Source of the DNA: a virus
Lineage: Duplodnaviria > Caudoviricetes
Virus record (IMG/VR): IMGVR_UViG_3300026549_000895
Coordinates: 32,001-96,000 of that record
Strand: one strand, 5' to 3'
DNA: 64,000 nt
A program made the position numbers and the translations under genes. Position 1 is the first letter of the stretch. Every line of letters begins with the position of its first letter. Under the pieces are notes generated by a model. The model made no database searches, was not told the DNA's origin, and saw only the letters and a list, made by a program, of their open reading frames with translations. Positions 4,186 to 60,878 of the stretch are shown here, in pieces.

Positions 4186-4253
4186 GAGATTATATTCCTT
4201 TCTATTTAATTTATCAATATTGATTTTATTAAATGAGACAATTCCTTATCCCA

Positions 4254-4277
4254 TCCATCTAAAGTATATACATATAT
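4254..4277 (-). promoter_or_regulatory. candidate early phage promoter (TATAT..ATG motif)
   Basis: ATGTATATACTTTAGATGG, variant of a motif recurring upstream of 8 genes. Confidence 0.4.
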
Positions 4278-4286
4278 AAAATATAT

Positions 4287-4314
4287 TATTCCCCGGGATT
4301 AACCCGGGGAATAT
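4287..4314 (-). terminator. intrinsic terminator hairpin
   Basis: TATTCCCCGGG-ATTAA-CCCGGGGAATA. Confidence 0.7.
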
Positions 4315-4335
4315 TTAACATACTTTCTTTTGTTT

Positions 4336-5250: not shown

Positions 5251-5316
5251 AATTTTATACACTCCTTTTATTATTTGACGAATTCATAATCCCAAATACA
5301 TACTCGTATGGGTTGA

Positions 5317-5340
5317 TTTCATATTAAATATGTATATACA
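5317..5340 (-). promoter_or_regulatory. candidate early phage promoter
   Basis: TATATACATATTTAATATGAAA on minus strand. Confidence 0.45.
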
Positions 5341-5373
5341 AAATAATTTTCTTTATAGAAAGGAGAAAAAATA

Positions 5374-15155: not shown

Positions 15156-18100
15156 ATGGCTGATAAAAATTTCTTATATTCAGGAGCCAATACCATGAGA
15201 ATACTCATGGATCAAGAACGAAAGCATTGGTTGCTAAAGACAGATAAATCAAAAACATTACAGGACAAAGAAACCGGTGATATGTTTAAATCGGTTATCG
15301 ACAATAACGGTGGAGAGATTGTTCTCTCCACCGAGAAACTTACTGATTCCAACGATTTCTTTCAGACATTGAAATTCAATGTTGCAACTTCATCAGGTAG
15401 TGACATTCTGGAATTTCAATCTTCGGCTTTCACTTATTGTCCTGAAGTGAATGGTTTGACATTCGCTCGTGTTAAAGCTTCAAAGTATCCATATTCATAT
15501 GGAGGAAGTGTACAATATTTCAATTACAAAGTCAAATTTGAAAACTGTGAAATTGTTACTTTGTTATTTGGAACATCAAAGAATTCTTCAAATGTAATTC
15601 CTACAAAATGGATCAAAACCTCAACTGTTCCAAAGGTTGTTGTAATCAATACGGCTGATTCAAATAATGTAATTGTCGAACAATCTTTGGCATTTGATTC
15701 CAATATAACAAATCCGGTTTGGTATTATCCATTAACGGAATCTTTACAGCCTTTTGCTTTGACAGAAACCGCGGCTAATGAATACACAACTTCATTGGTA
15801 GTTTCAGATAATAACATTGGATATCCAATGTATTGGTTCACTTGTGATAATTCAAACATTGGACCGAATGTGACAATAACCGATGCTGGTAATGTCAATA
15901 ACAACGGTGACACAATTATCTATTTCGGTTCGGAAGGTAATGGTTCTCGGTATAATGTTCTTGGATATGTCGGTATAGATGGAAATGAAGATGCTACTCC
16001 AACATGCGATTCAACATCCAATTTCTTTATACTCGTACATCCAAAGGATCCCAACGTAACATTCTCCGGAAACATACTTACTGACAGGCATATCGATTTG
16101 TCAAGAAATATAGTTTTCCGAGATGATACTGATCTTACAGAGCACACGATTCCGATTGTATTCTCTTCAGATGAAGGTAGTACAATATTGATGAATACAG
16201 ATGATTGTGTTTGGAATTATGAAGATAACACAACATATTCTATTCAGATGAATACATTTGATAGAAACTGCATGAATACCGGAACAACAATAAGCAATCT
16301 GCTTCCATTCATAAAAATACATCTTGATGAATCAGTTCCATTCGAAGTTGATGATACTGACTATGGAATGGCTGGTGTGTATATGTCATCCATGAATCCA
16401 AAGGATGATATTCAAACAGGTTATCCTTTTGATATTTCTAACTTTGATGGCTTGCCGACATGGATGACAACGGATGAACCAGATCGTCAAAGACTTGCTA
16501 TGTATGCAATTCATAACACTCCGTTCTATGCTGAAAGCGATCCTATGTCACGCCAAGTATCAGGATTGTTATTCGATCTTGGTGAAACAGTTCCTGATTC
16601 AGATGAATCATTGTCTTCTAATCAGTATGGAAGAATCTATTACGTAGGTAATGACCCAGCTGAATACGAAAACAACGCAACTTCAGAACATCCAAAACCT
16701 GCGAGAACATTGGCAAGAATTTGTGATATACCAACCTCTGTTGTTCAGTTATCAAACATATCCGGTTTGGCACCTTCTTCAATTGTTGATAAGAAATATG
16801 TTCGTACAGAAGCTTCTTATACAGAAGAAGAAAAAGATAGAGTATGGAATATTCTGTCATCAAGATGGGTTCGCCCTTCAAATGTAGATGAAGATAATAA
16901 TCCTATTTATTCAGAAGGACAAACAATGGTATTCAATTCCGAAGAAGATTTGAATCGTGTTGATTTGATTTCCCACAATGATTTCCGTTATCGTTTGAAT
17001 CTCAATCCCAAAGTTGATACTGATGATGTTTATATTTCATCAATTACAGAAAAGGGATCTGGATATGCTTTCAATGATAACATTCTTCTCGTTGTCGGAG
17101 GTTTCTCATTCAATATTCAAGTATTGACAGTTGATGCAGATGGTGGAGTATTGACAGCCGGTATTGGTGCTGCAGAAGCTTCCGAAATCAATCTTTCTAA
17201 CTTCAATATGAATTCTTCAGGTTCCGGTAATACAGAAGAATATTCGACATCTCCTCGAAATGGTTCTGGTTCTGGTTTCAAATGCATTCTTGGAATTAGA
17301 AATTATTCTCAATATCAACCGAAAAAGGGTGGAATCTTTGAAGACTTGTTTGCAGTTGTTCATCTTTCTGATGGAATATACTTCTATCAATATAAGATAA
17401 ATCATCCTTCAAAGGAAACTCTGTTGACTGGTCATTGGGAGAAAGGTCAAAAGATATCTTCATTGGTTGATTCTTCTCAAATAACTGCGGATGGAAATCT
17501 ATCTGTTGAAGACGCTTACACTGTCGGAAATATTCCTCATTACAGAGGTATCAATGTTCAACGTAATATTGATGATTCTCCGACATTGACAATTGTTGGA
17601 ATGAAAACAAATAACTGTATAAACATTCCTTCATCAAGTGTTATCACACCGCTCAATTCCGATATAAATAAATTCTATTCAAATGGAGAAACTCTGAGTG
17701 CTACTGCAACAATGAGAACTCCATATGGAGTATCAAAGGCATTACATAACATTTCGAAATTGTATTATGATTCATATATCATTTGGAGATGGAAAACAAA
17801 TTCCTCAACAGATTTGAATTTCGAATATGCAATCATTCGTCGTTCTTTGAACAATTACATTTCGACTGATGTTACCAATTACTTACCTCCGAACGATTTG
17901 TATGTGAAGGATTATCTCCACACAAACGATGCAACTACAATCGTATGGAATACACCTGACAATCAAACATTTATATTTGTATTTGATGCTGAATATCAAA
18001 AGCACGAATCATATCAATATATCAACAATGGATTCCAAATCCAAACAAAGGATTTCTCATTTGATGATATTGATATAAAGACTGCAGCTTCTTATATAGC

Positions 18101-21059: not shown

Positions 21060-21110
21060 AATAATTTCCTTTCTGATATCACTTATAGGCAGATATCATT
21101 TCCTTATTTT

Positions 21111-21132
21111 ATCATATTAAAGATATACATAT
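21111..21132 (-). promoter_or_regulatory. candidate early phage promoter
   Basis: ATGTATATCTTTAATATGAT on minus strand; core identical to the copy at 57582. Confidence 0.5.
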
Positions 21133-21195
21133 GAAATGATGAAATAATATTTTGAACTCGGAAATAATGTCTCAATATTGAAATGAGGTGATTAT

Positions 21196-21540
21196 ATGGA
21201 AATAACCGATGAGACAATCATTCAGCATATTGGAGAACTTATGACAAAGCTTCGGAAGGATAAAGAACTTCAGACTCTTGCAAGAGAAAATGGAATTGAT
21301 GTTCAAAACACCATGGACCTCACTGAAGATACAATTGAAATTTATGTGATCAGTGTTGTGTCACTGCTGTTGGCAAAACGTTCCGGCGATCCTAATTACA
21401 AAACAATGTGTTCTCTTGGACTCCAGAAACGATCTTTGAAAGCTGAACTTATTAACACTTACAAAGATCAGGCAATGCAGTTGATCAATGCTTGGAAAAT
21501 GAAATATCTAAGCAATCAACCAACAACAACTTTAGCTTGA
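21196..21540 (+). CDS. small hypothetical (probably virion) protein
   Basis: GAGGTG SD; 114 aa; first gene of the head-protein-like cluster. Confidence 0.65.
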   Translation: MEITDETIIQHIGELMTKLRKDKELQTLARENGIDVQNTMDLTEDTIEIYVISVVSLLLAKRSGDPNYKTMCSLGLQKRSLKAELINTYKDQAMQLINAWKMKYLSNQPTTTLA

Positions 21541-21678
21541 TAATATTTATAATTATACTATTATAAATATTACATAATTACCATTCATTAATTTACCGAC
21601 TTTATGAGTTACATCAGGGGGCTCTTGTAATAAGTGAATTCGAGTAAAAATATTATAACAAAGGAGCTAATGAAAAAT

Positions 21679-22707
21679 ATGGCTATGAAATACTCAGATC
21701 TCATGCTTGACTTCGAGACTGGCGACGCTTCATTTGAAGATATGTATGTCCAGGAAGCAGTCGGCAAGATAAATGTTGCATCTGCAATATTTGATAATGA
21801 ATATAGAATTGCTGAGACTCCCGAGGGTGTTAATGCATCTTATGTTCAGGAAGCTGCTGATGCAGGTCTTCCGGCTACTCAGGATTCTGCTAAGAGTGCA
21901 GCAACTCAGGCAGTAGGCCAGCAGCTTATTGCTACATATGACCTCGTTCTTTCTTCTGCAAGAAAGATCAAGGAATCTACAGGAAAGGCTCTTAAGAGCA
22001 TCTATACAATCGGCAAGTCTTATGGACTTTCTAAGGACAGCGAGGCTGCTGACTTCGCTAAGAAGCTTGCTCAGCTTATCGTTACTGATAACGGCTCTTC
22101 TAAGCTCGTTCAGGTTAAGCACCTTCCTGGTTCTAAGGTAGTTCAGATCAACGGCAAACACTTCCTCAAGGGCGGCAAGGCTTCATCTCTCGCAGAGAAG
22201 TTCGCTAAGGGTTACAATGCTGCATCTGCTGCATTCGGTCTCGACATCTCCAAGATCTATGACGATGCTTCTATTGTTTCATTCCTTGGTAAGAGTGCAA
22301 CAAGCGTTCCCAGTGGTGCTGGTACTCTCACTGATGTAGCTGACCTTCTTTCCACATTCGGAACAATGCTCAGCTCTGAGGCTAAGCTCAGTGGCGAAGG
22401 TTCTTTTACAGATACTCTTTCTACAAGAGATCTCGAGAACGTATTCCTCGCTGTATATTCAATCAATAAGATCGCAAGCGCAGTAGCTATCGAGCTCGGC
22501 AACTCTTCTAACAAGAGTGGTGCTAAGTCTGCTATCTCTGACGTAATCTCTAAGACAGATGCTGGAAGTAAGTCTGTTACTAAGGCATGCGCTAAGATTG
22601 GTCAGAACGCTAAGGCTTGGGCTGATTCTGCTGTTAAGTACGCAGATGCAGTATCTAAGGGATTCTGTGATTCTGTATATGCTATCTCTGGTAGCATCAA
22701 TCGATAA
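21679..22707 (+). CDS. putative abundant internal head protein with acidic propeptide
   Basis: AAGGAG SD (start 21670 or 21679); YVQE-A twice in an acidic N-terminus, then Ala/Lys/Ser-rich body; extreme AAG/CTC/GCT/TCT codon bias. Confidence 0.55.
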   Translation: MAMKYSDLMLDFETGDASFEDMYVQEAVGKINVASAIFDNEYRIAETPEGVNASYVQEAADAGLPATQDSAKSAATQAVGQQLIATYDLVLSSARKIKESTGKALKSIYTIGKSYGLSKDSEAADFAKKLAQLIVTDNGSSKLVQVKHLPGSKVVQINGKHFLKGGKASSLAEKFAKGYNAASAAFGLDISKIYDDASIVSFLGKSATSVPSGAGTLTDVADLLSTFGTMLSSEAKLSGEGSFTDTLSTRDLENVFLAVYSINKIASAVAIELGNSSNKSGAKSAISDVISKTDAGSKSVTKACAKIGQNAKAWADSAVKYADAVSKGFCDSVYAISGSINR

Positions 22708-22725
22708 GAAAGGAGATAATGTAAA

Positions 22726-23838
22726 ATGAGTTACACATACAACGATTTCGTTATGGAAGCTGCAATGGTTGAAGCAACCAATGATACAGAAGTATCAGAC
22801 ATTCAGATGGAACAGTGGAATGCGGAGTTCAATGTAGCATGTGCTGCATTTGATGCACTCAGAAAATATTCTCTGATCGCTGAGTATGCTCAGTGTGACG
22901 TTGAAGAGTTCGTTCAGGAATCTCTTGATGACAAGATCAACAAGGTTGATGACTGGAAGAACAGCGGTGGTAAGATGAAGAAGGTTCTTGGAACTATTGT
23001 TTCAGGTCTTCTCAAGGCTTTCCGTGCAGTAGCGAAATTCTTCAAGAACCTTTTCTCAAAGGAGAATAATCCTTTTGCAAAGGCTGCTCGTTTCATTAAG
23101 AAATATAAGGAAGGCAAACATGATCGTGAGATCAAGAAGGGTGTCCGCAAAATAGAGAAGGAAGCAACATCTAATAAGGGTCTTGCTAACACAGTTGCAG
23201 ACATGTCCGGTGAAATGGATGCAAAGGATAAGAAAATCGCATATCTCGAAAGAAAATGTGATAATCTTGTTAAGCAGGCTAAGCACTGGGCATCTGTTGC
23301 AAGAGGATACGCTACTGAGTATGATAAGCTCGTGACATATGTAGGTGAACTCAAGAATGCACTCAAGAAATCAAATTCTGAGAAGGATAGACTGCAGGGT
23401 GTAATCATCGAAAAGTGCAATATGATTGACCGTTGCTGTGAAAATATCTTTAAGCAGCAGGGTATGCATAATAAAGCACAGGGCAAGAAATACAGCGAGG
23501 AAGGCAGAGAAATACTCAGAGAGAATGAGTATAAAGATTTTGCTGATCAAATGCCTACTCTTGATACTGCTGAAAAAGCATATGAGAGTGCTGCTAACGA
23601 TACTGCCAAAGCAACTGCGTCCGCCGAAAAGGTTGTTTCTGTAATGGAAGATCTCCAGGAATCTATTGCAAATGGTGAGTTCGGAACTGAAGCAATGAAT
23701 GCTATCAAAAATACAGCAGGAAATCTCAACAAGGTTGTTCAGGATTCAAATAACTTTGGAAAGGCTGCACAGAAGCTTACTGTATCAGAAGCAGGTGCTG
23801 CAGCTAAGCAGGGTCTTCCTTCTGAATACTTTGTGTGA
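22726..23838 (+). CDS. putative internal head protein with propeptide
   Basis: FVME-A, MVE-A, FVQE-S in N-terminus, then amphipathic KKVLGTIVSGLLKAFRAVAKFFKNLF helix and coiled coil. Confidence 0.55.
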   Translation: MSYTYNDFVMEAAMVEATNDTEVSDIQMEQWNAEFNVACAAFDALRKYSLIAEYAQCDVEEFVQESLDDKINKVDDWKNSGGKMKKVLGTIVSGLLKAFRAVAKFFKNLFSKENNPFAKAARFIKKYKEGKHDREIKKGVRKIEKEATSNKGLANTVADMSGEMDAKDKKIAYLERKCDNLVKQAKHWASVARGYATEYDKLVTYVGELKNALKKSNSEKDRLQGVIIEKCNMIDRCCENIFKQQGMHNKAQGKKYSEEGREILRENEYKDFADQMPTLDTAEKAYESAANDTAKATASAEKVVSVMEDLQESIANGEFGTEAMNAIKNTAGNLNKVVQDSNNFGKAAQKLTVSEAGAAAKQGLPSEYFV

Positions 23839-23858
23839 GTCAACTTTGAAACAATAAA

Positions 23859-24143
23859 ATGCTGACGGCGGTTATCCTTTCTAAAGACGAAGCGTTTCCT
23901 GTTGCAAGAACATCGAAATGTGACGTTGTATCAAAAGGAACAATAAAGGATGGGGATACCATTGAAGTGGTATCACCCATCTTTTCATCAGTCAACTTCA
24001 AAGAGAAATCTTTGAAAACTTCTTCAACAATATCAGTTCCAGCTAAGATTGTTTCAAATAACGATGGTTATGTAAATGATCCAGAAGTAGGAAGATTGAT
24101 ATGTGAGGACTCCGACGTGGATAGTATGTTTGTTGAGTTATAA
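23859..24143 (+). CDS. hypothetical protein
   Basis: 94-aa ORF in operon context. Confidence 0.5.
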   Translation: MLTAVILSKDEAFPVARTSKCDVVSKGTIKDGDTIEVVSPIFSSVNFKEKSLKTSSTISVPAKIVSNNDGYVNDPEVGRLICEDSDVDSMFVEL

Positions 24144-24168
24144 TAAATGAAAAGGATGGTGATTATAA

Positions 24169-24579
24169 ATGGACTCAGAAACAAAAACTCTGTTACCCTC
24201 GTTGCTAAGTTATATAAATTCTGATCTGTTTTCTTTCTCATCCATTTCGACATCGATGGAATTCAACAAAGCTGATGATGTGGATCCAACACTGATTGAC
24301 AAATGGGCGGCTGTGATATCATATCTCCCATTAAAGTTTTATCAGGTAATTGAATCGTATCCAGATATGATTCAATGGGAAGAATTCGATAAAAAGTATT
24401 CAAGGAATCCAAAAATGTTTGCATACGAAAAGTATGGTTCAACAAACATGTGGGCTCCTATCATGATACTTAATCGATGTCCATCTATCATTGACTTTGA
24501 TTTCGAGTTCATAAGATGCTATAATATACAGACATTTTCGAAAGTCCTGTCGGTACTAATTTCGAGAGTTAGTGGGTGA
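24169..24579 (+). CDS. baseplate wedge protein, LysM/T4 gp53-like
   Basis: YSRNPKMFAYEKYGSTNMWAPIMILN fits the gp53/LysM pattern P..ls...YG....W..I...N. Confidence 0.55.
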   Translation: MDSETKTLLPSLLSYINSDLFSFSSISTSMEFNKADDVDPTLIDKWAAVISYLPLKFYQVIESYPDMIQWEEFDKKYSRNPKMFAYEKYGSTNMWAPIMILNRCPSIIDFDFEFIRCYNIQTFSKVLSVLISRVSG

Positions 24580-25952
24580 TAATCTTGACAGATACGGAAG
24601 AGATAAAAAATCATCCAAATAATCGGAATGATAATAACTTCAATGAGGGAAAGACTAATTTGAATATCCGCGATACTGCAATGACATATCAATACGGCGG
24701 TTACTCACCGGATACAATGGCACGACAAATGTCGTTGTCTATTGCATGCCAATCCGGAACAGATGTGGTTCACTCTGTTGGAAATGTTACAGCTATTCTG
24801 ATGCAATTCATATTGGATCAGTTTCCATCTGGCACGTTTAAAACGGCGATTCCGTCAACTAAACTTGCACACAGACAGTTGAAGCAAACTCCAAAACAGA
24901 TAAGGACACAACCATATCCAATGTGTATTGTCAATCCACGTGTTTCGTTAATAGCGAACGATGATCGTTTTGGTGCAAATACATTCGCCGCAACGACATA
25001 CTTTTCTGCTTCGGATCGATATCAGAATCGCTCCGAGATGGCTCTTCTATTAAAGGACCCTCGGATTGGTATTGAATGGAGAGGAAAAATCAATCGACTT
25101 GTGTTGAATTTGGACTTTGTACTGGCGTTCAAATCAATCGCTGAACAAACGCGTTGGGCTTCATATTTGGCAAACAAGATACCAGTTGAGAATGGTTTCT
25201 TACCGGATATTGAAACGGCGTTAGAGTTGGCATTACCGGATGGATTCTTACAGGCTACTTCGGAATACATTGGAATCCCCGTAAAGGATAAGAATGGTTC
25301 AGTAGTACCTTTCATTGATTATTTGAATATGCATTCTGTATATCCAATATCATACAGATTCTCATCTGGTAGGCACAAAGATGCTTTCTATGCAAACTAC
25401 TCAGCACCTCTCTTATGCAGTATTTCTGGTTTCAATTATACGAATACTACTCGGACCGGTCAGGTAGAATCCGATTGTCCTATTACGTTCACGCTGCGAT
25501 GTGAATACACAACAATTGGTTTGTTTGAGTTGGCTCATCCAAACCCGGGTATGATCAGGATTCTTCCTTCTGAAGAGAGTGGTGTTGTGATACCGATTTT
25601 CTCCGACAATTTCAATGAAAAGGACTTCCCTTTGGAGTACGGGTGGGTCATCCACGCCAGGCCAATTTGTCAGATGGATTGGGGAGAACATGAGGTATCA
25701 TTCGAACCTATTTTGGGAGATGGAATAAATAAAGTCCTTGATTTTCATTTAAAACATCACTTGAAACCCGAACTCTTCATATCTATAAAGCTCCGAGAAA
25801 ATCATATACTGATAGATGATGGATATTATATCGATTGGGAAAACAAGAAGATTGTATTCACAACTATCTCGTATACACATACATACAGGGTCATCATAGC
25901 AGTCAACAAACTGTATATTCAAGATAACCTGATAAGTATGTATGGAAAATAA
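24576..25952 (+). CDS. putative virion structural protein
   Basis: 458-aa ORF in structural operon; start uncertain. Confidence 0.5.
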   Translation: MIILTDTEEIKNHPNNRNDNNFNEGKTNLNIRDTAMTYQYGGYSPDTMARQMSLSIACQSGTDVVHSVGNVTAILMQFILDQFPSGTFKTAIPSTKLAHRQLKQTPKQIRTQPYPMCIVNPRVSLIANDDRFGANTFAATTYFSASDRYQNRSEMALLLKDPRIGIEWRGKINRLVLNLDFVLAFKSIAEQTRWASYLANKIPVENGFLPDIETALELALPDGFLQATSEYIGIPVKDKNGSVVPFIDYLNMHSVYPISYRFSSGRHKDAFYANYSAPLLCSISGFNYTNTTRTGQVESDCPITFTLRCEYTTIGLFELAHPNPGMIRILPSEESGVVIPIFSDNFNEKDFPLEYGWVIHARPICQMDWGEHEVSFEPILGDGINKVLDFHLKHHLKPELFISIKLRENHILIDDGYYIDWENKKIVFTTISYTHTYRVIIAVNKLYIQDNLISMYGK

Positions 25953-25979
25953 ATTCAATACTTGAAAGGAGTATTCATC

Positions 25980-26231
25980 ATGTTTGGAATGAACTTTGAC
26001 ATTGATGAGGTTGCTGTTCAGGAAGCTTCCTATGATGCAGCTTCATCCTCATACAAGGATCTCTTTGAGGATAAGTTCACATCTTTCAATCCTGAGAACA
26101 TCGTAAGCTCTGGCAACAACAAGCTCAGAACTGATATGTACGATATGGAAATCGAAGATTCTGATCTTGCAATCGGCTATAAGAACGATCCCCCTGCAAC
26201 TGACCCTAAGATCGGTCGTTGGATGGACTAA
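25980..26231 (+). CDS. small acidic putative head protein
   Basis: GAAAGGAG SD; AVQE-A motif; strong codon bias. Confidence 0.6.
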   Translation: MFGMNFDIDEVAVQEASYDAASSSYKDLFEDKFTSFNPENIVSSGNNKLRTDMYDMEIEDSDLAIGYKNDPPATDPKIGRWMD

Positions 26232-26241
26232 TCTGTTGAAT

Positions 26242-26264
26242 ACCACCCCGGTCTCCGGGGTGGT
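26242..26264 (+). terminator. intrinsic terminator
   Basis: ACCACCCCGG-TCT-CCGGGGTGGT then T-rich. Confidence 0.7.
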
Positions 26265-26294
26265 GTTTAATTTATTTAGAAAGGAATTTTTATT

Positions 26295-26822
26295 ATGGAA
26301 AAAGAAATTGGGATTTCATTTCCTGGTTCTTCTTTGAGTGATTCGGCTTTCTATAACGAACATTTAGAAAACTCTTCAAATGAGGGACAATTCACACAGG
26401 AAGGATACTTTATTGATAATATCATAGACACTTTTCCACAAGACTTCTTGATAGCAATGGGAGGACCTATTGGCGCCGCAATATCTATCGCATGTGGTAA
26501 TACGTTTGGTATTGATCATTTGGAAAAAGCCTTCAAATGTGCAAAAAATAAAGATGAAAAAGGCTTCAGAAAACAAATGCGCAGAGCTGCTCAATCTTTT
26601 AAGAGAGCTTCGATTACAAAAATTATAAATAAGGAAAAGGTTGCAAAAGTTCAAACTCTTGGATCATTCTGTGATATTATGGCAGATGGTGTATATAACG
26701 ATCTTCCGTATAAGAAAGACATTGAGGATTTGTTCGGCAAAATTCTCAAAGATGTTTGTAACATGGATGTTCCAAACAAAGAACAACAGCCGAATAGCGC
26801 TACTGATACCGATGTTGATTAA
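26295..26822 (+). CDS. putative internal head protein
   Basis: GAAAGGA SD; FTQE-G ends an acidic N-terminal segment. Confidence 0.5.
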   Translation: MEKEIGISFPGSSLSDSAFYNEHLENSSNEGQFTQEGYFIDNIIDTFPQDFLIAMGGPIGAAISIACGNTFGIDHLEKAFKCAKNKDEKGFRKQMRRAAQSFKRASITKIINKEKVAKVQTLGSFCDIMADGVYNDLPYKKDIEDLFGKILKDVCNMDVPNKEQQPNSATDTDVD

Positions 26823-26826
26823 AGAT

Positions 26827-26855
26827 AAGCCCCCTTATTAGGGGGCTTTCCTTTT
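26827..26855 (+). terminator. intrinsic terminator
   Basis: AAGCCCCC-TTATTA-GGGGGCTT-TCCTTTT. Confidence 0.75.
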
Positions 26856-26907
26856 GACGTTTTGATAATTTCTACTACTGTATTATTTAATAAGGAGGAT
26901 TATCGAA

Positions 26908-29898
26908 ATGGAATATATTTTCGAAGCTAAAATAAATACTGAAGATAGAAACAAATTACCAGATTCAGCATTTGGTATTCCATCAAAAAGGAAATATCCA
27001 TTGACTGATGAAAACCATGTTCTTCAAGCTGTTCGTTTCTTCAACAAAGCACCTGAAGAAGATAAATCCGAATTAGCACATAACATCGTAAAACGTGCTA
27101 AAGAACTTAATATGGATTGGGAAAAATGGGATGTCTTAAAACCATATCTTGATAAACCTATTGAGGAAGCATATACTAAGGATTTACATTCTACACCAGA
27201 AGCAGATAAGATATGTGCATACTTATGTAAGTCTGTGGAATACGATAATGCTTCGCCTAAAACATGGAGACTTAAATCTCCTGACGAACTTACAGATCAT
27301 AACAAGGGTAATTGTCATGATACCGCTTGGTATGTCTTCAATAACTTGGATGCTTATGCAAAGCACCCGGTTGACAAAGGTATTCTTTTCTTTATTGAAT
27401 ATAAAGAAGGAAAGACGGAAGGTGGTCAAACACATTCTGTTTGTTATGAAAAGATACCTGATGGAATCTGTATCATAGAATGCTCATGGCAAGGTATGCG
27501 TGGTACATTTCCATATAACGACATCAATGAATATATCTCTGTTGTTAAAAACAATTGGGAATTCACAGGTGATAATGATAAACTTTATGCAACTGAAATA
27601 AAGCATACATCTCAAATTCATCCCGGTATGACTCTGGGTGAATATGTATCCGTTGCAATGAAGAATAAAGAAATCATTACGGAATCATATGTACCACATC
27701 CTGATGATGACTACACATCAGGTACATCAGATTTCAATCACGATGACGATGATCCTGATGATTGTTACTGTGAATCTGACAAAGAACGTGTTAACGATAA
27801 AGGAGAAATAGTACCAGATAAATGTACTAAATGTGATTCTCCTATTGAAATATATCTTAAGGGTGAACCCGTTTATTTATGTTCTAATAAGAAATGTGGT
27901 AAGTACTATGGTACTGTTCCATGCAACATAAATGAATCGCATCAAATGTCAGAAACACAAGCGTTCTACAAACGTTGGTTTGATTCTAAAGCCAAAGAAG
28001 ATTTAGATAAAGCAAAGAATATTGCTAAACAGATACATGAAAAATATGAATCTGATAAGCAACCTCCATGCGGAAACCAAAATTGTATGCTGTGTACTAT
28101 GTGTGCCGAAGCACAATTTAGAGGAATTAATATTCTTCCACGACCAGTATATTCACCACGTGATCCGGTATTGAAAATACTTGGTGAATCGATCGTTAAG
28201 AATCCAATACATAAATCAATCAAATCAGGTTTCGATGATATGCTTGATTTAGCAACAGAACCCAGAGATGCCAGATGGTATTGTCATGTAAAATGGAAGA
28301 ATGGAAATGGTGGTCATGAATTTCTTCTTCTTAACATTAATCAGCATCTTTATGTTATGGATGCTCAACAAGGAATCGTTACTCTGAATATAGAATCAGA
28401 ATACTTCAAAGATGTTGATTATTCGGAATCATATATTTGTCGTCTTGATAACTGTGAATTGAATGAATCTTTATTGAATGAAATGAATGATCCAAAGAAC
28501 ACTCTACCTTGGAATGCTACATTGGATATTCCATTTATGCTCAAGGAAGGAATGTTAACAGAGGAAGAAGCTGAAGAGTATTGGCAGGAACATCCTGATG
28601 AAAGACCAGTTCAAGAATCTAAAATGATTCTGAATTCAAATGATTCAAGAATTCCCAAACTAATGTGTGAAGGATGGAAGATAGCTGGTACTACTATAAA
28701 CAATGAATATATTCTCATCCAAGAAGGCTATGATGATATATCGTTGCATGTATCATTGGTTCCTGCCACAATGTCAGATGTTCCCAATATGGAAGCTTGG
28801 GAATATGAATGTATGAAAGATGCATATCCTAACAGAGAAATACCTGAATCCGAAGTTGATAAACTGAAAGCCGAACTTCATCAGGATGCAATTGATTCAG
28901 TTCATAAAACAAGAATGATTCAATATGATGGTCAAACAATCGGTATGCTAACTGCATACAACGTTCTTGATGATCAATATTGGTACATTGCCGAAATATA
29001 TTTGATTGAAGAATACAGAGGTAAAGGTATTGCCAAATATATTCTCAAGAATGAGATTGATCAGCATGATAAGTTGATTCTGAATGTATATCAGAATAAT
29101 AAACACGCCATTGAGTTATATAAATCATTGGGATTTGAAATAACTCAGGATGGCGATGGTCGTTTTATAATGGAACTTGATAAAACGAAACATAAAACAA
29201 AATACCAACCTTCCAATGTATTCACTCTGGATGAATATAAAAGAGCTAACAAGTATCGTTCGGTAATAGTTGGAGAAATACATAATTCTTCAATGTTGAA
29301 ATACTATGATAAACTTCTATCGGAAAGAAAACCCGAATACTTCATATCCGAGTTTGCTCACGAAGATAGAGTGTTATCTTTACCTGAACTGAAACAGAAA
29401 CTTGATATGGCTACGAATGGTGAATTCAAACCCGGTATTCCTGATTATCAAGATAATTATGCAATTTACAAACTTGCATATGATCATGGTTGTAAATTGA
29501 TTGGTTGTGACTTGAATAATGGAAAGCATTATAATCGTATGCATGATGAAGATCATGAACGTGAAGCATATATGTTGAAGGTATTAGAAGAGTTTGAAAA
29601 TACCAACTTCGTTTGTCAACTCGGAGATCATCATCTTAGAAGTATTCCAATAACCAAGGAATTCCTTGATTATTGTGGTGATACAAAAGATGACAGAGGA
29701 ATTGTTTCCGATTTAACTGTTGACAATGCTTCTCCTATATGGGTATATTTTACTCATGAGCCAAAGGATGTTGCAATACTTCGTGAACCCAATGAATTGA
29801 AGAATGAATTGGATTTCATAAATCAACAAACAATTCAGGAAGAATATTGGCAGGACATCAAGAATGGAGTTAATCCGAAATCGAAAGATGATGAATGA
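26908..29898 (+). CDS. multidomain effector polyprotein: DUF6582-like, transglutaminase-like, Zn ribbon, papain-fold toxin/deamidase, GNAT acetyltransferase, TIKI/EreA-like
   Basis: LPDSAFGIP..RKYPL.DENHV; GNCHD/THSV/IECSW; CTKC..CSNKKC; NCMLC/GHEF/MDAQQG; YRGKGIAK..NKHAIELYKSLGF; IVGEIH..SEF..GCD..LGDHH. Confidence 0.7.
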   Translation: MEYIFEAKINTEDRNKLPDSAFGIPSKRKYPLTDENHVLQAVRFFNKAPEEDKSELAHNIVKRAKELNMDWEKWDVLKPYLDKPIEEAYTKDLHSTPEADKICAYLCKSVEYDNASPKTWRLKSPDELTDHNKGNCHDTAWYVFNNLDAYAKHPVDKGILFFIEYKEGKTEGGQTHSVCYEKIPDGICIIECSWQGMRGTFPYNDINEYISVVKNNWEFTGDNDKLYATEIKHTSQIHPGMTLGEYVSVAMKNKEIITESYVPHPDDDYTSGTSDFNHDDDDPDDCYCESDKERVNDKGEIVPDKCTKCDSPIEIYLKGEPVYLCSNKKCGKYYGTVPCNINESHQMSETQAFYKRWFDSKAKEDLDKAKNIAKQIHEKYESDKQPPCGNQNCMLCTMCAEAQFRGINILPRPVYSPRDPVLKILGESIVKNPIHKSIKSGFDDMLDLATEPRDARWYCHVKWKNGNGGHEFLLLNINQHLYVMDAQQGIVTLNIESEYFKDVDYSESYICRLDNCELNESLLNEMNDPKNTLPWNATLDIPFMLKEGMLTEEEAEEYWQEHPDERPVQESKMILNSNDSRIPKLMCEGWKIAGTTINNEYILIQEGYDDISLHVSLVPATMSDVPNMEAWEYECMKDAYPNREIPESEVDKLKAELHQDAIDSVHKTRMIQYDGQTIGMLTAYNVLDDQYWYIAEIYLIEEYRGKGIAKYILKNEIDQHDKLILNVYQNNKHAIELYKSLGFEITQDGDGRFIMELDKTKHKTKYQPSNVFTLDEYKRANKYRSVIVGEIHNSSMLKYYDKLLSERKPEYFISEFAHEDRVLSLPELKQKLDMATNGEFKPGIPDYQDNYAIYKLAYDHGCKLIGCDLNNGKHYNRMHDEDHEREAYMLKVLEEFENTNFVCQLGDHHLRSIPITKEFLDYCGDTKDDRGIVSDLTVDNASPIWVYFTHEPKDVAILREPNELKNELDFINQQTIQEEYWQDIKNGVNPKSKDDE

Positions 29899-31524: not shown

Positions 31525-33237
31525 ATGAGTTATAAAAATAAATTTTATCTGGAAGCTGAGTTAGAGGATGACGATACTGAGCTTGAAGAAGATGAAGATA
31601 TCGAGAAAGGACTCGATGAAGATGATGACGACAATTATGATGACGAGAATGGCTATGATGCTGATGGTGATGACGATGAGTCTGAAAATGACGAATTTGA
31701 TATTGAAGATCCGGACGAAGAAGATGAACCTCGTCCGATGACATATGATGATCTCGATGAATATGATGATACATCTGAAGATGAAGAGGATGATATGTCA
31801 GATTTCGGATCTGATGATTCTGATATCAACAATGACTATGATCCGAAAGATGCTGATGCATTGAACAAACTCATATCGTCAGAGGCTTCTGCAGTCCAGG
31901 AGTATCTTGATGCTAATATGGAAACATCAAATGATAATCTTCGTAGGTTATATGTTGATATTGCCAATGAGGAAAGATTCCATATCGAGCAATTAATGTA
32001 TGCTAAGGCTAAACTCACTGGCGAGAAGTATGAACCATCTGATCCTAAGGTTAAACGTGAATACGAGGAACTCTGTAATTCAGGAATGGATGAAGAATCC
32101 GCAATGTCTACGGCATGTGATAAATGTGCAATATCCAATGACAAGTATTATACAAATGATTCTATCAATGACATCATCGATGACATTGACGATTTCACAG
32201 AATCATTTGTTGAATCAGTTGCCAATAACCTCACTCTTGCATCATTGAATGATACTCAGGAAGTATATATGGAATACGCTGATATGTTCTATATGGAAGG
32301 TATACAGAATGCGACTGATGAGTCTGTCAAGAATAGCAACAAAGTTCATCCTATCAGATTCATCATTAAGACATTTACGGGTATAATCAAATTCATTCGT
32401 AAGATAGTTACTCGTATTAGAGAATTCCTCAGAAAAGTTCATATTAAAGATATGAACAAAATAAACTGGATAAAGAAGCATGGTATAAAGGATCTATTCA
32501 AAGAAGGTATCTGGTTATATACATGGAGTGATAAAGGTGATCATGGTGAAAACGTAAGAGCTTTGTATCAGTATCTTGATTTGTTTGACAGAGTAATGGC
32601 TACTATTCAGAATTCTATGCATGACAAGAAAGAAGCACTTCCTGTTACACAAACAAGAGTCAATGCAAAGGTTCCTAATCCAATAAAATTCAAGAACATT
32701 GAACATGGTGTCAGAATACTAAGAAATGTTATTTTCTCAAAAGAGAAGGTGCTAATCACTGAGAATAATGAACAGGATCTCGAGAAAATATTCTTTGGTA
32801 TAACCGATAATGGAACATCTGGTCCTTCATGGAATATTTACAATTTCCTTGATATACTTTCAAATGGTTTTGAAAGTCTGAGTAAAGATTGTGAACAGTT
32901 GCTTCAGGATCTCCAGGATCTCGAAGGAAACTATGACAGCGTATACTCAAAGAACCCGAAGCTGTATAATCTGTTGATATCTTCAACAAAGGGATTATCA
33001 AAAGAATTTGGTAAGTTCTCCAAAATCATTACTCATGATACAACAACTATCATGCAGCTCAACTCCGGTTTGTATGAGCTCATGAAAGAATATGATGAAT
33101 CCAAGAAATACAACAAAGGAGAATCCGAAGAAGCTCAGGAAGATATTGCAAATAACAAGTTCCAGAAAAAGAAAACTTCCGAAGATCTCAAGAGATATTA
33201 TCCTGGGATTGATGAAAATCGTGAACCTGGTGAATGA
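31525..33237 (+). CDS. putative internal head protein with acidic tract and ferritin-like domain
   Basis: D/E-rich N-terminus; LISSEASAVQEY...DIANEERFHIEQL (ExxH diiron-type); FYME-G followed by amphipathic helix. Confidence 0.55.
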   Translation: MSYKNKFYLEAELEDDDTELEEDEDIEKGLDEDDDDNYDDENGYDADGDDDESENDEFDIEDPDEEDEPRPMTYDDLDEYDDTSEDEEDDMSDFGSDDSDINNDYDPKDADALNKLISSEASAVQEYLDANMETSNDNLRRLYVDIANEERFHIEQLMYAKAKLTGEKYEPSDPKVKREYEELCNSGMDEESAMSTACDKCAISNDKYYTNDSINDIIDDIDDFTESFVESVANNLTLASLNDTQEVYMEYADMFYMEGIQNATDESVKNSNKVHPIRFIIKTFTGIIKFIRKIVTRIREFLRKVHIKDMNKINWIKKHGIKDLFKEGIWLYTWSDKGDHGENVRALYQYLDLFDRVMATIQNSMHDKKEALPVTQTRVNAKVPNPIKFKNIEHGVRILRNVIFSKEKVLITENNEQDLEKIFFGITDNGTSGPSWNIYNFLDILSNGFESLSKDCEQLLQDLQDLEGNYDSVYSKNPKLYNLLISSTKGLSKEFGKFSKIITHDTTTIMQLNSGLYELMKEYDESKKYNKGESEEAQEDIANNKFQKKKTSEDLKRYYPGIDENREPGE

Positions 33238-59349: not shown

Positions 59350-60525
59350 TCAACATAATATATTTAATCCATTAACGTAATTAAATGCATATTGTTTAAG
59401 ATTGATAGCCGCATTAACATCTCTATCAATCGTTAAACCACATTCATTACATTCATAAATTCTATCCGATAATTTTAGTTCGGATTTTATATTTCCGCAT
59501 TTGGAACATCTTTTAGATGATGGAAACCACTTATTTGCCAAAATAAGTTTATGATATGGAATTCGCTCTTGTTTGTATAATAACATTTCACGAAACATAC
59601 TGAATCCATTATCCATCGTGGATTTCCCAAGATGTAAACACTGCGACATATTCTGCATGTCAATATCCTCAACGCAGATTATACTAAACTTCTTGGTTAT
59701 CGAAGTTGATAATTTGTGTAAGAAATCTCTTCGTTGATTAGATATCTTTTCATGAAGAATACGAATCTTGTTTAATGTTTTTCCTCTATTAGCACCTCCT
59801 TTCTGTTGTCTTGAAAATTTCTTTTGTAGTATTCGTAATTTTTGTTGGTTACTTCTATAATACTTTGGATATGAAGCATTATTACCTTCGCTATCCATAT
59901 ACAATGAAGATGATGAATAATCAATTCCAAGAATATTCAACTTGCTATCATTTTGAATATTATCAATATTAATTGAATATTGGAAACATATCGAACAATA
60001 ATATTTGTTTGTAGTGGATTTAGATATTGTGATATGTTTTATTTTCCATTCATCTGGAATTTGTTTTTCTCTTGGATTGTACTTAACCCACCCAAGACAT
60101 GGAATCTTTATTTGGTGATTATTGTTGTCAATACGTGTTTGCTCGCCATGATAATTTGAATAAGAATTCTTACAATATTTCTTGGATTTAAATCTTGGAA
60201 AACTTTTTGGTCTTCTATCCTTTCTCATTTTGATGTTACCATTCTTGATATTATCAAAATATCTTGAAAAAGCTGAATGTAAGAATTGTTTAACATTATT
60301 CACGGAATGTCTATCGAATTTGTATTCTTTATTATCTTTTGACAACCATGAATTTTGTAATACGATATCTCCATAGTTAGGAATCTTCAATTGGCCATCA
60401 TCATACGATTTTATGGAAGATTCCAACATTTGATTCCATATGAATCTACAAACATTGAATGTATTATTGATTATTTCTGATTGATTATCATCTGGATATA
60501 TTCTGATCTTTCTGGATATTATCAA
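59350..60525 (-). CDS. tnpB: IS200/IS605-family RNA-guided endonuclease TnpB
   Basis: KIRIYP..Q HTH, PRFKSKK, RuvC D (LGIDY), E (CVEDI), D (DRDVNAAINL), CSKCG..CNECG Zn finger; likely start TTG 60525 after AGGAGG. Confidence 0.92.
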   Translation of the reverse strand: MIISRKIRIYPDDNQSEIINNTFNVCRFIWNQMLESSIKSYDDGQLKIPNYGDIVLQNSWLSKDNKEYKFDRHSVNNVKQFLHSAFSRYFDNIKNGNIKMRKDRRPKSFPRFKSKKYCKNSYSNYHGEQTRIDNNNHQIKIPCLGWVKYNPREKQIPDEWKIKHITISKSTTNKYYCSICFQYSINIDNIQNDSKLNILGIDYSSSSLYMDSEGNNASYPKYYRSNQQKLRILQKKFSRQQKGGANRGKTLNKIRILHEKISNQRRDFLHKLSTSITKKFSIICVEDIDMQNMSQCLHLGKSTMDNGFSMFREMLLYKQERIPYHKLILANKWFPSSKRCSKCGNIKSELKLSDRIYECNECGLTIDRDVNAAINLKQYAFNYVNGLNILC

Positions 60526-60551
60526 ATCAACAATTTTCCTCCTTTTATCAT

Positions 60552-60878
60552 TTACCGTCCACATATTTTTGTAATTACTTCCATCCAGTCAATATGTGGC
60601 GGGCTTTGCCCAAATCTGTAATAGAAATACCAATCCATGAAACCTTCTTCATTGTCCATCCAAGCACAATATTGTGTTATTTTACGAACTTCTTCTGCTA
60701 AATAATTACGTCTGTTCTCGTCGTCAGTACTCATTATTTCAAGCACATACTTATCCCTTAAATCCCTCAATTTATGGACATAATCAACAACATCATCCAA
60801 AGTAAGCATTTTGGGCGGGTTAGTATAGTAAGTACCGAATAATTCCTCGTCTGTTTGAATATTATCCGTAAAAATCAC
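60552..60878 (-). CDS. hypothetical protein
   Basis: 108-aa ORF; the track's GTG lies inside the AGGAGGTGA SD, so the true start is uncertain. Confidence 0.6.
   Translation of the reverse strand: MIFTDNIQTDEELFGTYYTNPPKMLTLDDVVDYVHKLRDLRDKYVLEIMSTDDENRRNYLAEEVRKITQYCAWMDNEEGFMDWYFYYRFGQSPPHIDWMEVITKICGR

Follow-up and report, generated by a model that had tools for sequence, protein, structure and literature searches.

How might a phage gene encode several unrelated enzymes in one uninterrupted chain, and how would these enzymes come apart? The question is raised by the open reading frame (ORF) at positions 26908-29898 (+ strand) of the 64,000-nucleotide window analysed here, which covers positions 32,001 to 96,000 of the IMG/VR virus record IMGVR_UViG_3300026549_000895 (Duplodnaviria; Caudoviricetes). 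This virus record is linear, has a length of 239,830 bp and is estimated to be 89% complete, and near-identical DNA is present in metagenomes that several studies obtained from the gut and rumen of cattle. Coordinates are window positions unless marked G000, which refers to the full virus record. An earlier note, made from the window's sequence alone, had described a single 996-aa ORF with six modules and eight joints ending in Glu, and had proposed that a prohead protease cuts these joints during capsid maturation. The ORF is indeed uninterrupted for 996 codons, and the eight sites lie at the nucleotides given there, namely the end of the leader (E6) and the codons ending at 27168 (E87), 27684 (E259), 27774 (E289), 27936 (E343), 28617 (E570), 28725 (E606) and 29841 (E978). 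The neatest reading of our sequence analyses, towards which we lean with modest confidence, is that the ORF encodes a polyvalent cargo polyprotein whose joints would be cut in trans by the phage's prohead protease inside the capsid. The predicted parts of the chain are listed below, with arrows for the putative cuts and model confidence given as the predicted local distance difference test (pLDDT).

26908-26925, + strand: leader MEYIFE↓A, residues 1-6, a putative short propeptide; E6 conserved
26926-27168, + strand: DUF6582-like constant head module, residues 7-87, ends IEE↓A; pLDDT 83-93
27169-27684, + strand: transglutaminase-like Cys-His-Glu/Asp domain, residues 88-259, ends ITE↓S; PF01841
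27685-27774, + strand: acidic disordered linker, residues 260-289, ends in the portable joint PDDCYCE↓S; pLDDT <50 at 261-292
27775-27936, + strand: C4 zinc-ribbon module, residues 290-343, ends INE↓S; from tblastn and the model
27937-28617, + strand: papain-fold glutamine-deamidase-like domain, residues 344-570, ends PVQE↓S; PF15644
28618-28725, + strand: small beta module, residues 571-606, ends IQE↓G; strands 571-576, 591-595 and 600-605
28726-29187, + strand: GNAT acetyltransferase, residues 607-760; PF00583
29188-29841, + strand: TIKI/EreA/ChaN/RRSP-like domain, residues 761-978, ends IQE↓E; model m798ccf13fb64
29842-29898, + strand: C-terminal tail, residues 979-996, and stop codon; E978 conserved

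The motif hydrophobic-x-E-[A/S/G] occurs at 15 sites in the ORF against 4.45 expected, a number reached by 0 of 5000 composition-preserving shuffles, and control patterns in which D, K or Q replaces the E were not enriched. By this measure the ORF ranks first among the 193 ORFs of the genome (Poisson 6e-5), for which the observed/expected ratio is 1.19 overall; when only the first 34 residues of each ORF are considered, motif sites were at chance level (33/193). The placement of the sites is also uneven. In the full-chain model, obtained with AlphaFold2 on a 145-row alignment, the linkers of low confidence (pLDDT <50) within residues 1-761 are 1-5, 83-91, 261-292, 339-354 and 606-609, and all five contain or abut a site (E6, E87, E259, E289, E343 and E606). 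Six of the 15 sites lie in these linkers or at most two residues from them, the linkers making up 11% of residues 1-761 (P 0.004). A comparison of linkers with domains had been set beforehand as a possible refutation, and it showed the motif to be commoner in linkers: 6 of 10 linker Glu belong to a motif, compared with 9 of 61 Glu in domains (Fisher P 0.004). All eight sites listed in the earlier note are real, but its loose pattern matches the ORF 19 times, and the eleven copies inside domains had not been mentioned.

At the joint sites 6, 87, 259, 289, 570, 606 and 978, the Glu is kept in 76-100% of aligned relatives, and at E343 in 50%. Across relatives, P3 at these joints varies among F, I, V, Y and M, and P1' among A, S and G. 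Among aligned rows, the Glu is present in 95% of 55 at E6 (P3 F/I/V, P1' A/S/E/G), in 96% of 48 at E289 (P3 Y/F, P1' S) and in 93% of 73 at E570 (P3 V/Y/I/M), while E606 is kept in 22/22 rows, the small beta module that it ends being found in only some relatives, and E978 in 29/29 rows, where the relatives' P1' is G or S. Within the domains, the copies at 427-552, 647 and 701 have mostly lost the Glu or its motif context in relatives; E401 is conserved because it sits in the catalytic Cys helix.

A candidate for the cutting enzyme is encoded elsewhere in the genome. The gene at G000 188636-189493, for a protein of 285 aa, matches Peptidase_S80 (PF20034, 34.5 bits, cut-off 23.4) as well as the head maturation protease family phrog_3014, and adjoins the gene for the 698-aa major head protein. 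Residues H93, S161 and D188 of the protease are invariant in 25 sequences, with a spacing that resembles the triad H77/S153/D178 of SPN3US gp245, a member of the family typified by phiKZ gp175 (PMC5694885). The earlier note had invoked a prohead protease of the T4 gp21 or phiKZ gp175 kind; the enzyme found is of the phiKZ type, a Glu-specific S80 protease, whereas PF03420 (T4 gp21, S77) had no Pfam match in the phage's own genome at E up to 1.

The joint motif is found again in the head proteins, for which conservation was assessed in 16-24 relatives with 45-61% identity. The protease has a conserved F[VI]QE↓A at residue 19, and near residue 207, just past the catalytic domain, hyd-x-E↓[SGA] is kept amid residues that otherwise vary (PVQE↓S, VHQE↓S, PYQE↓G, VMTE↓G), at the location of gp175/gp245 self-cleavage. 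The capsid protein carries a conserved [LV][IV]QE↓[SA] at residue 121, the expected propeptide junction, and an acidic, scaffold-like protein of 194 aa a conserved FIME↓A at residue 10. The motif is also conserved at residue 20 of a 399-aa protein and at residue 321 of a 983-aa protein. One motif is shared by the chain and the protease and capsid sites, and its hydrophobic P3 is unlike the A/S/G-x-E of phiKZ and SPN3US. The S80 protease of this clade appears to prefer a hydrophobic P3, and we infer that the joint motif, [V/I/F/Y]-x-E↓[A/S/G], is the recognition site of the phage's own S80 prohead protease.

Similar leaders were seen in two further ORFs of the window. In the 570-aa ORF at 31525-33237, the start MSYKNKFYLE↓A precedes a polyacidic tract of about 95 residues, and PF07875 (Coat_F/ferritin-like) matches with 29.1 bits; the other ORF, at 22726-23838, encodes a coiled-coil protein of 370 aa that begins MSYTYNDFVME↓A. 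Both leaders are in the style of those of the target and the scaffold-like head protein. The next most motif-enriched ORFs of the genome, of 1057, 813 and 364 aa (G000 177457-180630, 222486-224927 and 15570-16664), are candidate protease substrates.

The history of the locus is consistent with joints that separate exchangeable modules. A search of 5.8 billion proteins gave 306 relatives of 650-1730 aa, on contigs of up to 270 kb, which have only parts of the target chain in common. The DUF6582 module stands first in the chain of about 107 of 120 relatives, and the modules behind it are gained, lost and reordered. Shuffling at the sites, which the earlier note had proposed to look for, was observed: homology breakpoints on the query fall at residues 81-100, 241-300, 331-380, 551-620, 751-790, 811-820 and 961-970, most of which coincide with sites. 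Among 63 non-redundant relatives, 127 of 637 breakpoints were at most five residues from a motif, against 75.8 expected, and the corresponding controls gave 39 for D (40.8 expected) and 21 for K (41.0 expected). Moreover, the parts of the relatives that are unrelated to the query (11,138 residues) contain 94 motif sites against 51.8 expected (standard deviation 6.7, z ~6), with a weaker excess for D and K and none for Q. Pfam scans of ten non-homologous module blocks of these relatives gave only weak hints of ferritin, SUKH and P-loop domains.

All six modules named in the earlier note (DUF6582, transglutaminase-like, zinc ribbon, PF15644, GNAT and TIKI/ChaN/RRSP-like) were recovered, and the catalytic-type motifs it pointed out are near-invariant among relatives. 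Relatives differ in the leader before E6, which has up to about 60 residues or is absent altogether, the most distant members beginning right at the cut position. DUF6582 (PF20223) scores 20.3-24.2 bits on the query, under the cut-off of 27.3, but matches 17 of about 18 N-terminal segments of relatives (E ≤0.01, best 2e-7), and the module also matches phrog_16160 (E 2e-8). Residues 7-41 have weak matches (E 4e-3 to 2e-2) to small ORFs within the structural modules of two cultured phages; a literature search on DUF6582 found nothing. The transglutaminase-like domain reaches 23.5 bits with PF01841 Transglut_core (cut-off 23), its residues 95-259 match PF04473 clusters among Atlas structures with template modelling scores of 0.72-0.78, and its C136, H176 and E191 are conserved in relatives. 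The joint PDDCYCE↓S of the acidic linker stands behind other modules in relatives. In the zinc ribbon, residues 292-347 share 49-51% identity with Lak megaphage ORFs (tblastn), and the model has beta strands at 312-336 with low-pLDDT segments on both sides.

The papain-fold domain is a predicted PF15644-type deamidase. On this domain alone, PF15644 Gln_amidase scores 26.3 bits (cut-off 24.1); the family matches 37 of 74 scanned segments, about 38 of which are papain-like, and C393/C396, H470 and D485 are invariant or nearly so. The GNAT domain is supported by PF00583 (E 4e-12), by Foldseek matches to N-acetyltransferases (E 1e-6) and by a conserved R-G-x-G-[IA] CoA motif. Foldseek with the full 996-aa model returned GNAT matches only and was therefore uninformative on the other domains, and phmmer searches of three domains against PDB sequences gave nothing usable. 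The C-terminal domain was modelled separately (m798ccf13fb64, pLDDT 90.9) from a 42-sequence alignment obtained by exhaustive search, and Foldseek against the PDB matched it to RRSP (E 2e-5), ChaN (1e-3), HopBA1 (8e-3) and the erythromycin esterase EreC (0.09). Since it has no Pfam sequence match, it is placed in the TIKI/EreA/ChaN/RRSP superfamily by fold only; the 42 sequences show little or no variation in GExH, E, RE and GDxH. The element at residues 967-993 recurs as a post-GNAT connector in other architectures.

Residues 95-259 (27190-27684) also have structural neighbours in Bacillota that are fused to GNAT, ASCH or aminoglycoside-phosphotransferase domains, which suggests a recurring functional pairing of the transglutaminase-like module with small-molecule- or protein-modifying enzymes.

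The target gene forms its own unit, with a terminator on the upstream operon and a GGAGG ribosome-binding site before its ATG. It is preceded by the following elements:

26827-26856, + strand: intrinsic terminator that closes the upstream operon, with the stem AAGCCCCC/GGGGGCTT and then a T-rich run, read from the sequence
26857-26870, + strand: promoter-like motif ACG-N4-GATAATT, 38 nt before the ATG, of the class ACG-N4-N-R-TAA-Y-Y

RNA contigs from two rumen metatranscriptome runs of one sample stop at 26811 and 26820, near this terminator. The target gene itself is spanned by low-depth RNA contigs in one sample's metatranscriptome, in which a high-depth contig ends at the upstream terminator; because genes cannot be ranked by contig depth and DNA may have been carried over, these contigs were not used for timing. 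The 14-nt pattern ACG-N4-N-R-TAA-Y-Y has 11 copies in the 240-kb genome, of which 10 are intergenic and lie 26-83 nt 5' of a gene on the same strand, in a genome that is only about 7% non-coding. The copies listed are:

G000 37278 (window 5278-5291), 58857 (window 26857-26870), 142545, 147076 and 154704: ACG-N4-N-R-TAA-Y-Y
G000 175531, 184505, 185460, 211430 and 211462: ACG-N4-N-R-TAA-Y-Y

The pattern precedes the target, the protease/capsid operon, a 1411-aa gene resembling the RNA polymerase (RNAP) beta subunit and the gene of a 596-aa virion structural protein. A dockerin gene and some large ORFs also have it upstream, and it may represent a promoter class of virion genes.

Two other patterns were rejected: 'GACG-N6-TAA', which had 5 upstream hits, and a loose promoter regular expression, which showed no intergenic excess, only the N4-spaced version being specific. 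Separately, an AT-rich element, TATAT(A/C)N..TTTAATATGA, is found repeatedly ahead of many other genes, frequently in divergent pairs, and looks like a second promoter class, perhaps early or middle. Example divergent intergenic regions with this element are:

4186-4335: AT-rich element
5263-5373: AT-rich element
21060-21195: AT-rich element

If the chain is a cargo polyprotein cut by the prohead protease, the precursor would be synthesised with the head proteins and enter the prohead, possibly by means of its leader or the DUF6582 module. Maturation would then cut it at the joints into about seven pieces. The predicted products are the leader (1-6), the DUF6582 module (7-87), the transglutaminase-like domain (88-259), an acidic peptide (260-289), the zinc ribbon (290-343), the deamidase-like domain (344-570), the beta module (571-606), GNAT plus TIKI-like domain (607-978) and the tail (979-996); the GNAT and TIKI-like domains would probably remain joined. 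The pieces would be ejected together with the DNA, to modify host proteins as infection begins. Cleavage by this enzyme would imply packaging, since the prohead protease works inside proheads. The analyses themselves show what the domains are, that the motif is enriched, conserved and placed in linkers, that an S80 protease is present and that relatives shuffle modules; cleavage, packaging, ejection and enzyme targets we infer.

Several observations weigh against this scheme. The presence of a site at nearly every boundary, as first claimed, holds for the joints of residues 1-761, but the joint between the GNAT and C-terminal domains has no canonical site and only IME↓L; residues 771 onward are structured in the better model, and this joint is short. 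An N-terminal F-x-x-E-A leader signature occurs 6 times genome-wide against 3.5 expected, which is not significant. The family-wide counts are not independent events, because homologues share phylogeny, and tblastn found no full-length homologue of the target in 50,697 phage records. About 127 kb separate the gene from the head operon, and it stands 2-4 genes upstream of DNA ligase, here and in relatives; the position upstream of the NAD-ligase is kept in two other phages, and replication and repair neighbours (ligase, UvsX-like) were found in every one of the three contexts seen. The promoter-like motif is supportive only, because its pattern was defined after looking at the data, and in one relative it stands before the polyvalent gene but also before a small ligase-adjacent gene. 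S80 proteases are reported to cleave after A/S/G-x-E, with P1' Ser favoured, and in SPN3US 13 of the 14 mapped cuts are removals of N-terminal propeptides, while 42 head proteins are uncut (PMC10052503). Finally, the chain contains three embedded peptidase-like folds that could cut it themselves.

The last point leads to an account in which the prohead protease is uninvolved and the polyvalent protein is delivered or works as a single chain, or else its own peptidase-like domains cut it; we consider this account unlikely. The three folds (transglutaminase-like, papain-fold and TIKI/RRSP-like) are of Cys- or metallo-hydrolase type with conserved catalytic-type residues. In MARTX toxins, an analogous case, the RRSP effector is released by an internal Cys protease domain. 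Release by embedded peptidases also has precedent in polyvalent proteins, and the virion RNAP (vRNAP) of phage N4 is packaged unprocessed (PMC5512222). However, the P1-Glu motif of the joints is the same as that at the expected S80 sites of the protease and the capsid protein, both of which are without embedded domains. In addition, PF15644 is annotated as a deamidase toxin and not as a processing peptidase, and the other motif-rich ORFs showed no peptidase family in Pfam and PHROG scans, where these were run.

A second account, to which we also give a low probability, holds that the product is an intracellular, non-packaged multi-enzyme protein, whose joints are structural linker caps or recombination joints instead of protease sites. 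It would agree with the replication and repair genes that adjoin the target, and with the recurrence of PDDCYCES and the 967-993 element as portable connectors, in the manner of recombination cassettes; furthermore, a background of hydrophobic-x-charged-small sequences is 1.2-1.4 fold enriched even for K and D. Yet the joints are conserved by residue class (P3 F/I/V/Y/M, P1' A/S/G) and not as identical DNA, breakpoints show no enrichment of the D and K controls, and the joint motif equals the site motif of the head proteins. The terminator-bounded unit of the gene and the promoter-like motif common to the head operon also argue against this account. A chance or compositional artefact of a protein rich in E, K and D is very unlikely: the pattern was indeed picked after the protein had been seen, and 11 of its 19 loose matches lie in domains and are mostly unconserved, but the shuffles and the first rank among 193 ORFs speak against chance, as do the linker placement and the repetition of the enrichment in non-homologous sequence of relatives and, with null controls, at breakpoints.

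The preferred reading, that of a cargo polyprotein cut by the prohead protease, has counterparts in several known systems. Polyvalent proteins of phages and conjugative elements were described by Iyer, Burroughs, Anand, de Souza and Aravind in 2017 (PMC5512222), who explicitly drew the analogy to RNA-virus polyproteins; the same analogy in the earlier note is therefore not new, and in its published form embedded peptidases are the cutters. Like the target, polyvalent proteins combine unrelated conflict-type enzymes in one chain (GNAT, peptidase-like folds) and have mosaic orthologues, and their delivery with the DNA was predicted by the authors (PMC5512222). Unlike the target, whose joints carry the putative S80 motif, their domains were proposed to be released by embedded peptidases, mainly of the zincin-like MPTase type. 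A constant DUF6582 module heading the chain also distinguishes the target from the proteins of that paper, the main text of which does not mention papain, deamidase or transglutaminase domains (PMC5512222).

The phages phiKZ, 201phi2-1 and SPN3US (gp175, gp245) resemble this phage in having an S80 protease that cleaves after Glu with P1' Ser favoured, a C-terminal self-cleavage site in the protease, an N-terminal propeptide site in the capsid protein and genes for a multi-subunit RNAP. The 1411-aa ORF at G000 142795-147030 matches the phage RNAP beta subunit (phrog_3148, E 3e-139), which places the phage among the jumbo phages with their own multi-subunit RNAP. In contrast to the V/I/F/Y at P3 here, the motif of the three phages is A/S/G-x-E; their substrates mostly undergo propeptide removal, with no known enzyme chain that is cut at every joint, and the target ORF has no sequence homology to the known substrates.

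The internal proteins IPI-III and Alt of T4 have, like the target with its MEYIFE↓A, a short N-terminal leader that ends in hydrophobic-x-E followed by Ala, and they are enzymes injected with the DNA, as is proposed for the target. T4 gp21 follows the rule L/I-x-E and thus has a hydrophobic P3. The T4 cargo proteins differ in being single-domain proteins with one gp21 cut, whereas the target's genome has no S77/gp21 match. By analogy, a targeting role of the target's leader is putative. MARTX toxins, in turn, are arrays of unrelated effectors that are cut apart after delivery, which is like the proposal made here, and their effector RRSP has a fold in common with the C-terminal domain of the target. 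They are, however, secreted bacterial toxins that are autoprocessed and act on eukaryotic cells, whereas the chain studied here is phage-encoded, presumably acts on bacteria and is presumably cut by a protease in trans.

A wider version of the preferred reading seems to us possible rather than probable. In rumen phiKZ-type jumbo phages, the prohead-protease site might be a universal joint, so that any module flanked by it would be loaded, released and injected; the modules would stand behind a constant DUF6582 module for capsid entry, and the locus would be a plug-and-play platform that evolves by cassette exchange. Polyvalent proteins, the RNA-virus polyprotein analogy and the S80 processing of ejected head proteins, which are among the known S80 substrates (PMC10052503, PMC5694885), have already been published, but we found no paper on a multi-enzyme chain jointed by sites of a trans-acting head protease. 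Our analysis adds a phiKZ-type (S80) example with head-protein positive controls and null controls for the motif. If the preferred reading is correct, the capsid maturation protease gains a second job, the dicing of a multi-enzyme precursor, and a variable set of enzymes that are injected to modify the host comes from a single late gene. The reading would account for the loading of many different cargo enzymes by jumbo phages without a targeting signal for each, as well as for the high mosaicism of these loci. Cargo in uncultured phages could then be predicted from two signs, an excess of the motif in linkers and the conserved sites of the protease itself, and the deamidase, acetyltransferase and two or three hydrolases would be first-minute weapons against rumen Bacillota-type hosts.

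The surroundings of the target gene are poorly covered by known families: Pfam and PHROG scans of ten neighbouring ORFs gave nearly no family matches. The upstream operon of eight genes (21088-26820; 114, 357, 370, 94, 136, 458, 89 and 175 aa) also has nearly no matches. A single RNA contig of about 5.7 kb covers this operon at a depth of about 112 (two rumen metatranscriptome runs, one sample), while depths are 2-16 for the RNA contigs of the following 12 kb and a DNA run is flat at about 25; the operon may be a very highly expressed unit. In the DNA contig of a related rumen strain, 33612 is joined to 34918 and 1305 bases are skipped. This junction indicates that the HNH endonuclease insert of the NAD-ligase gene is missing in the related strain, which fits a mobile homing element. 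A further mobile element is represented by the IS200/IS605-type, TnpB-like transposase ORF at 59350-60564 (phrog_506, E 3e-93).

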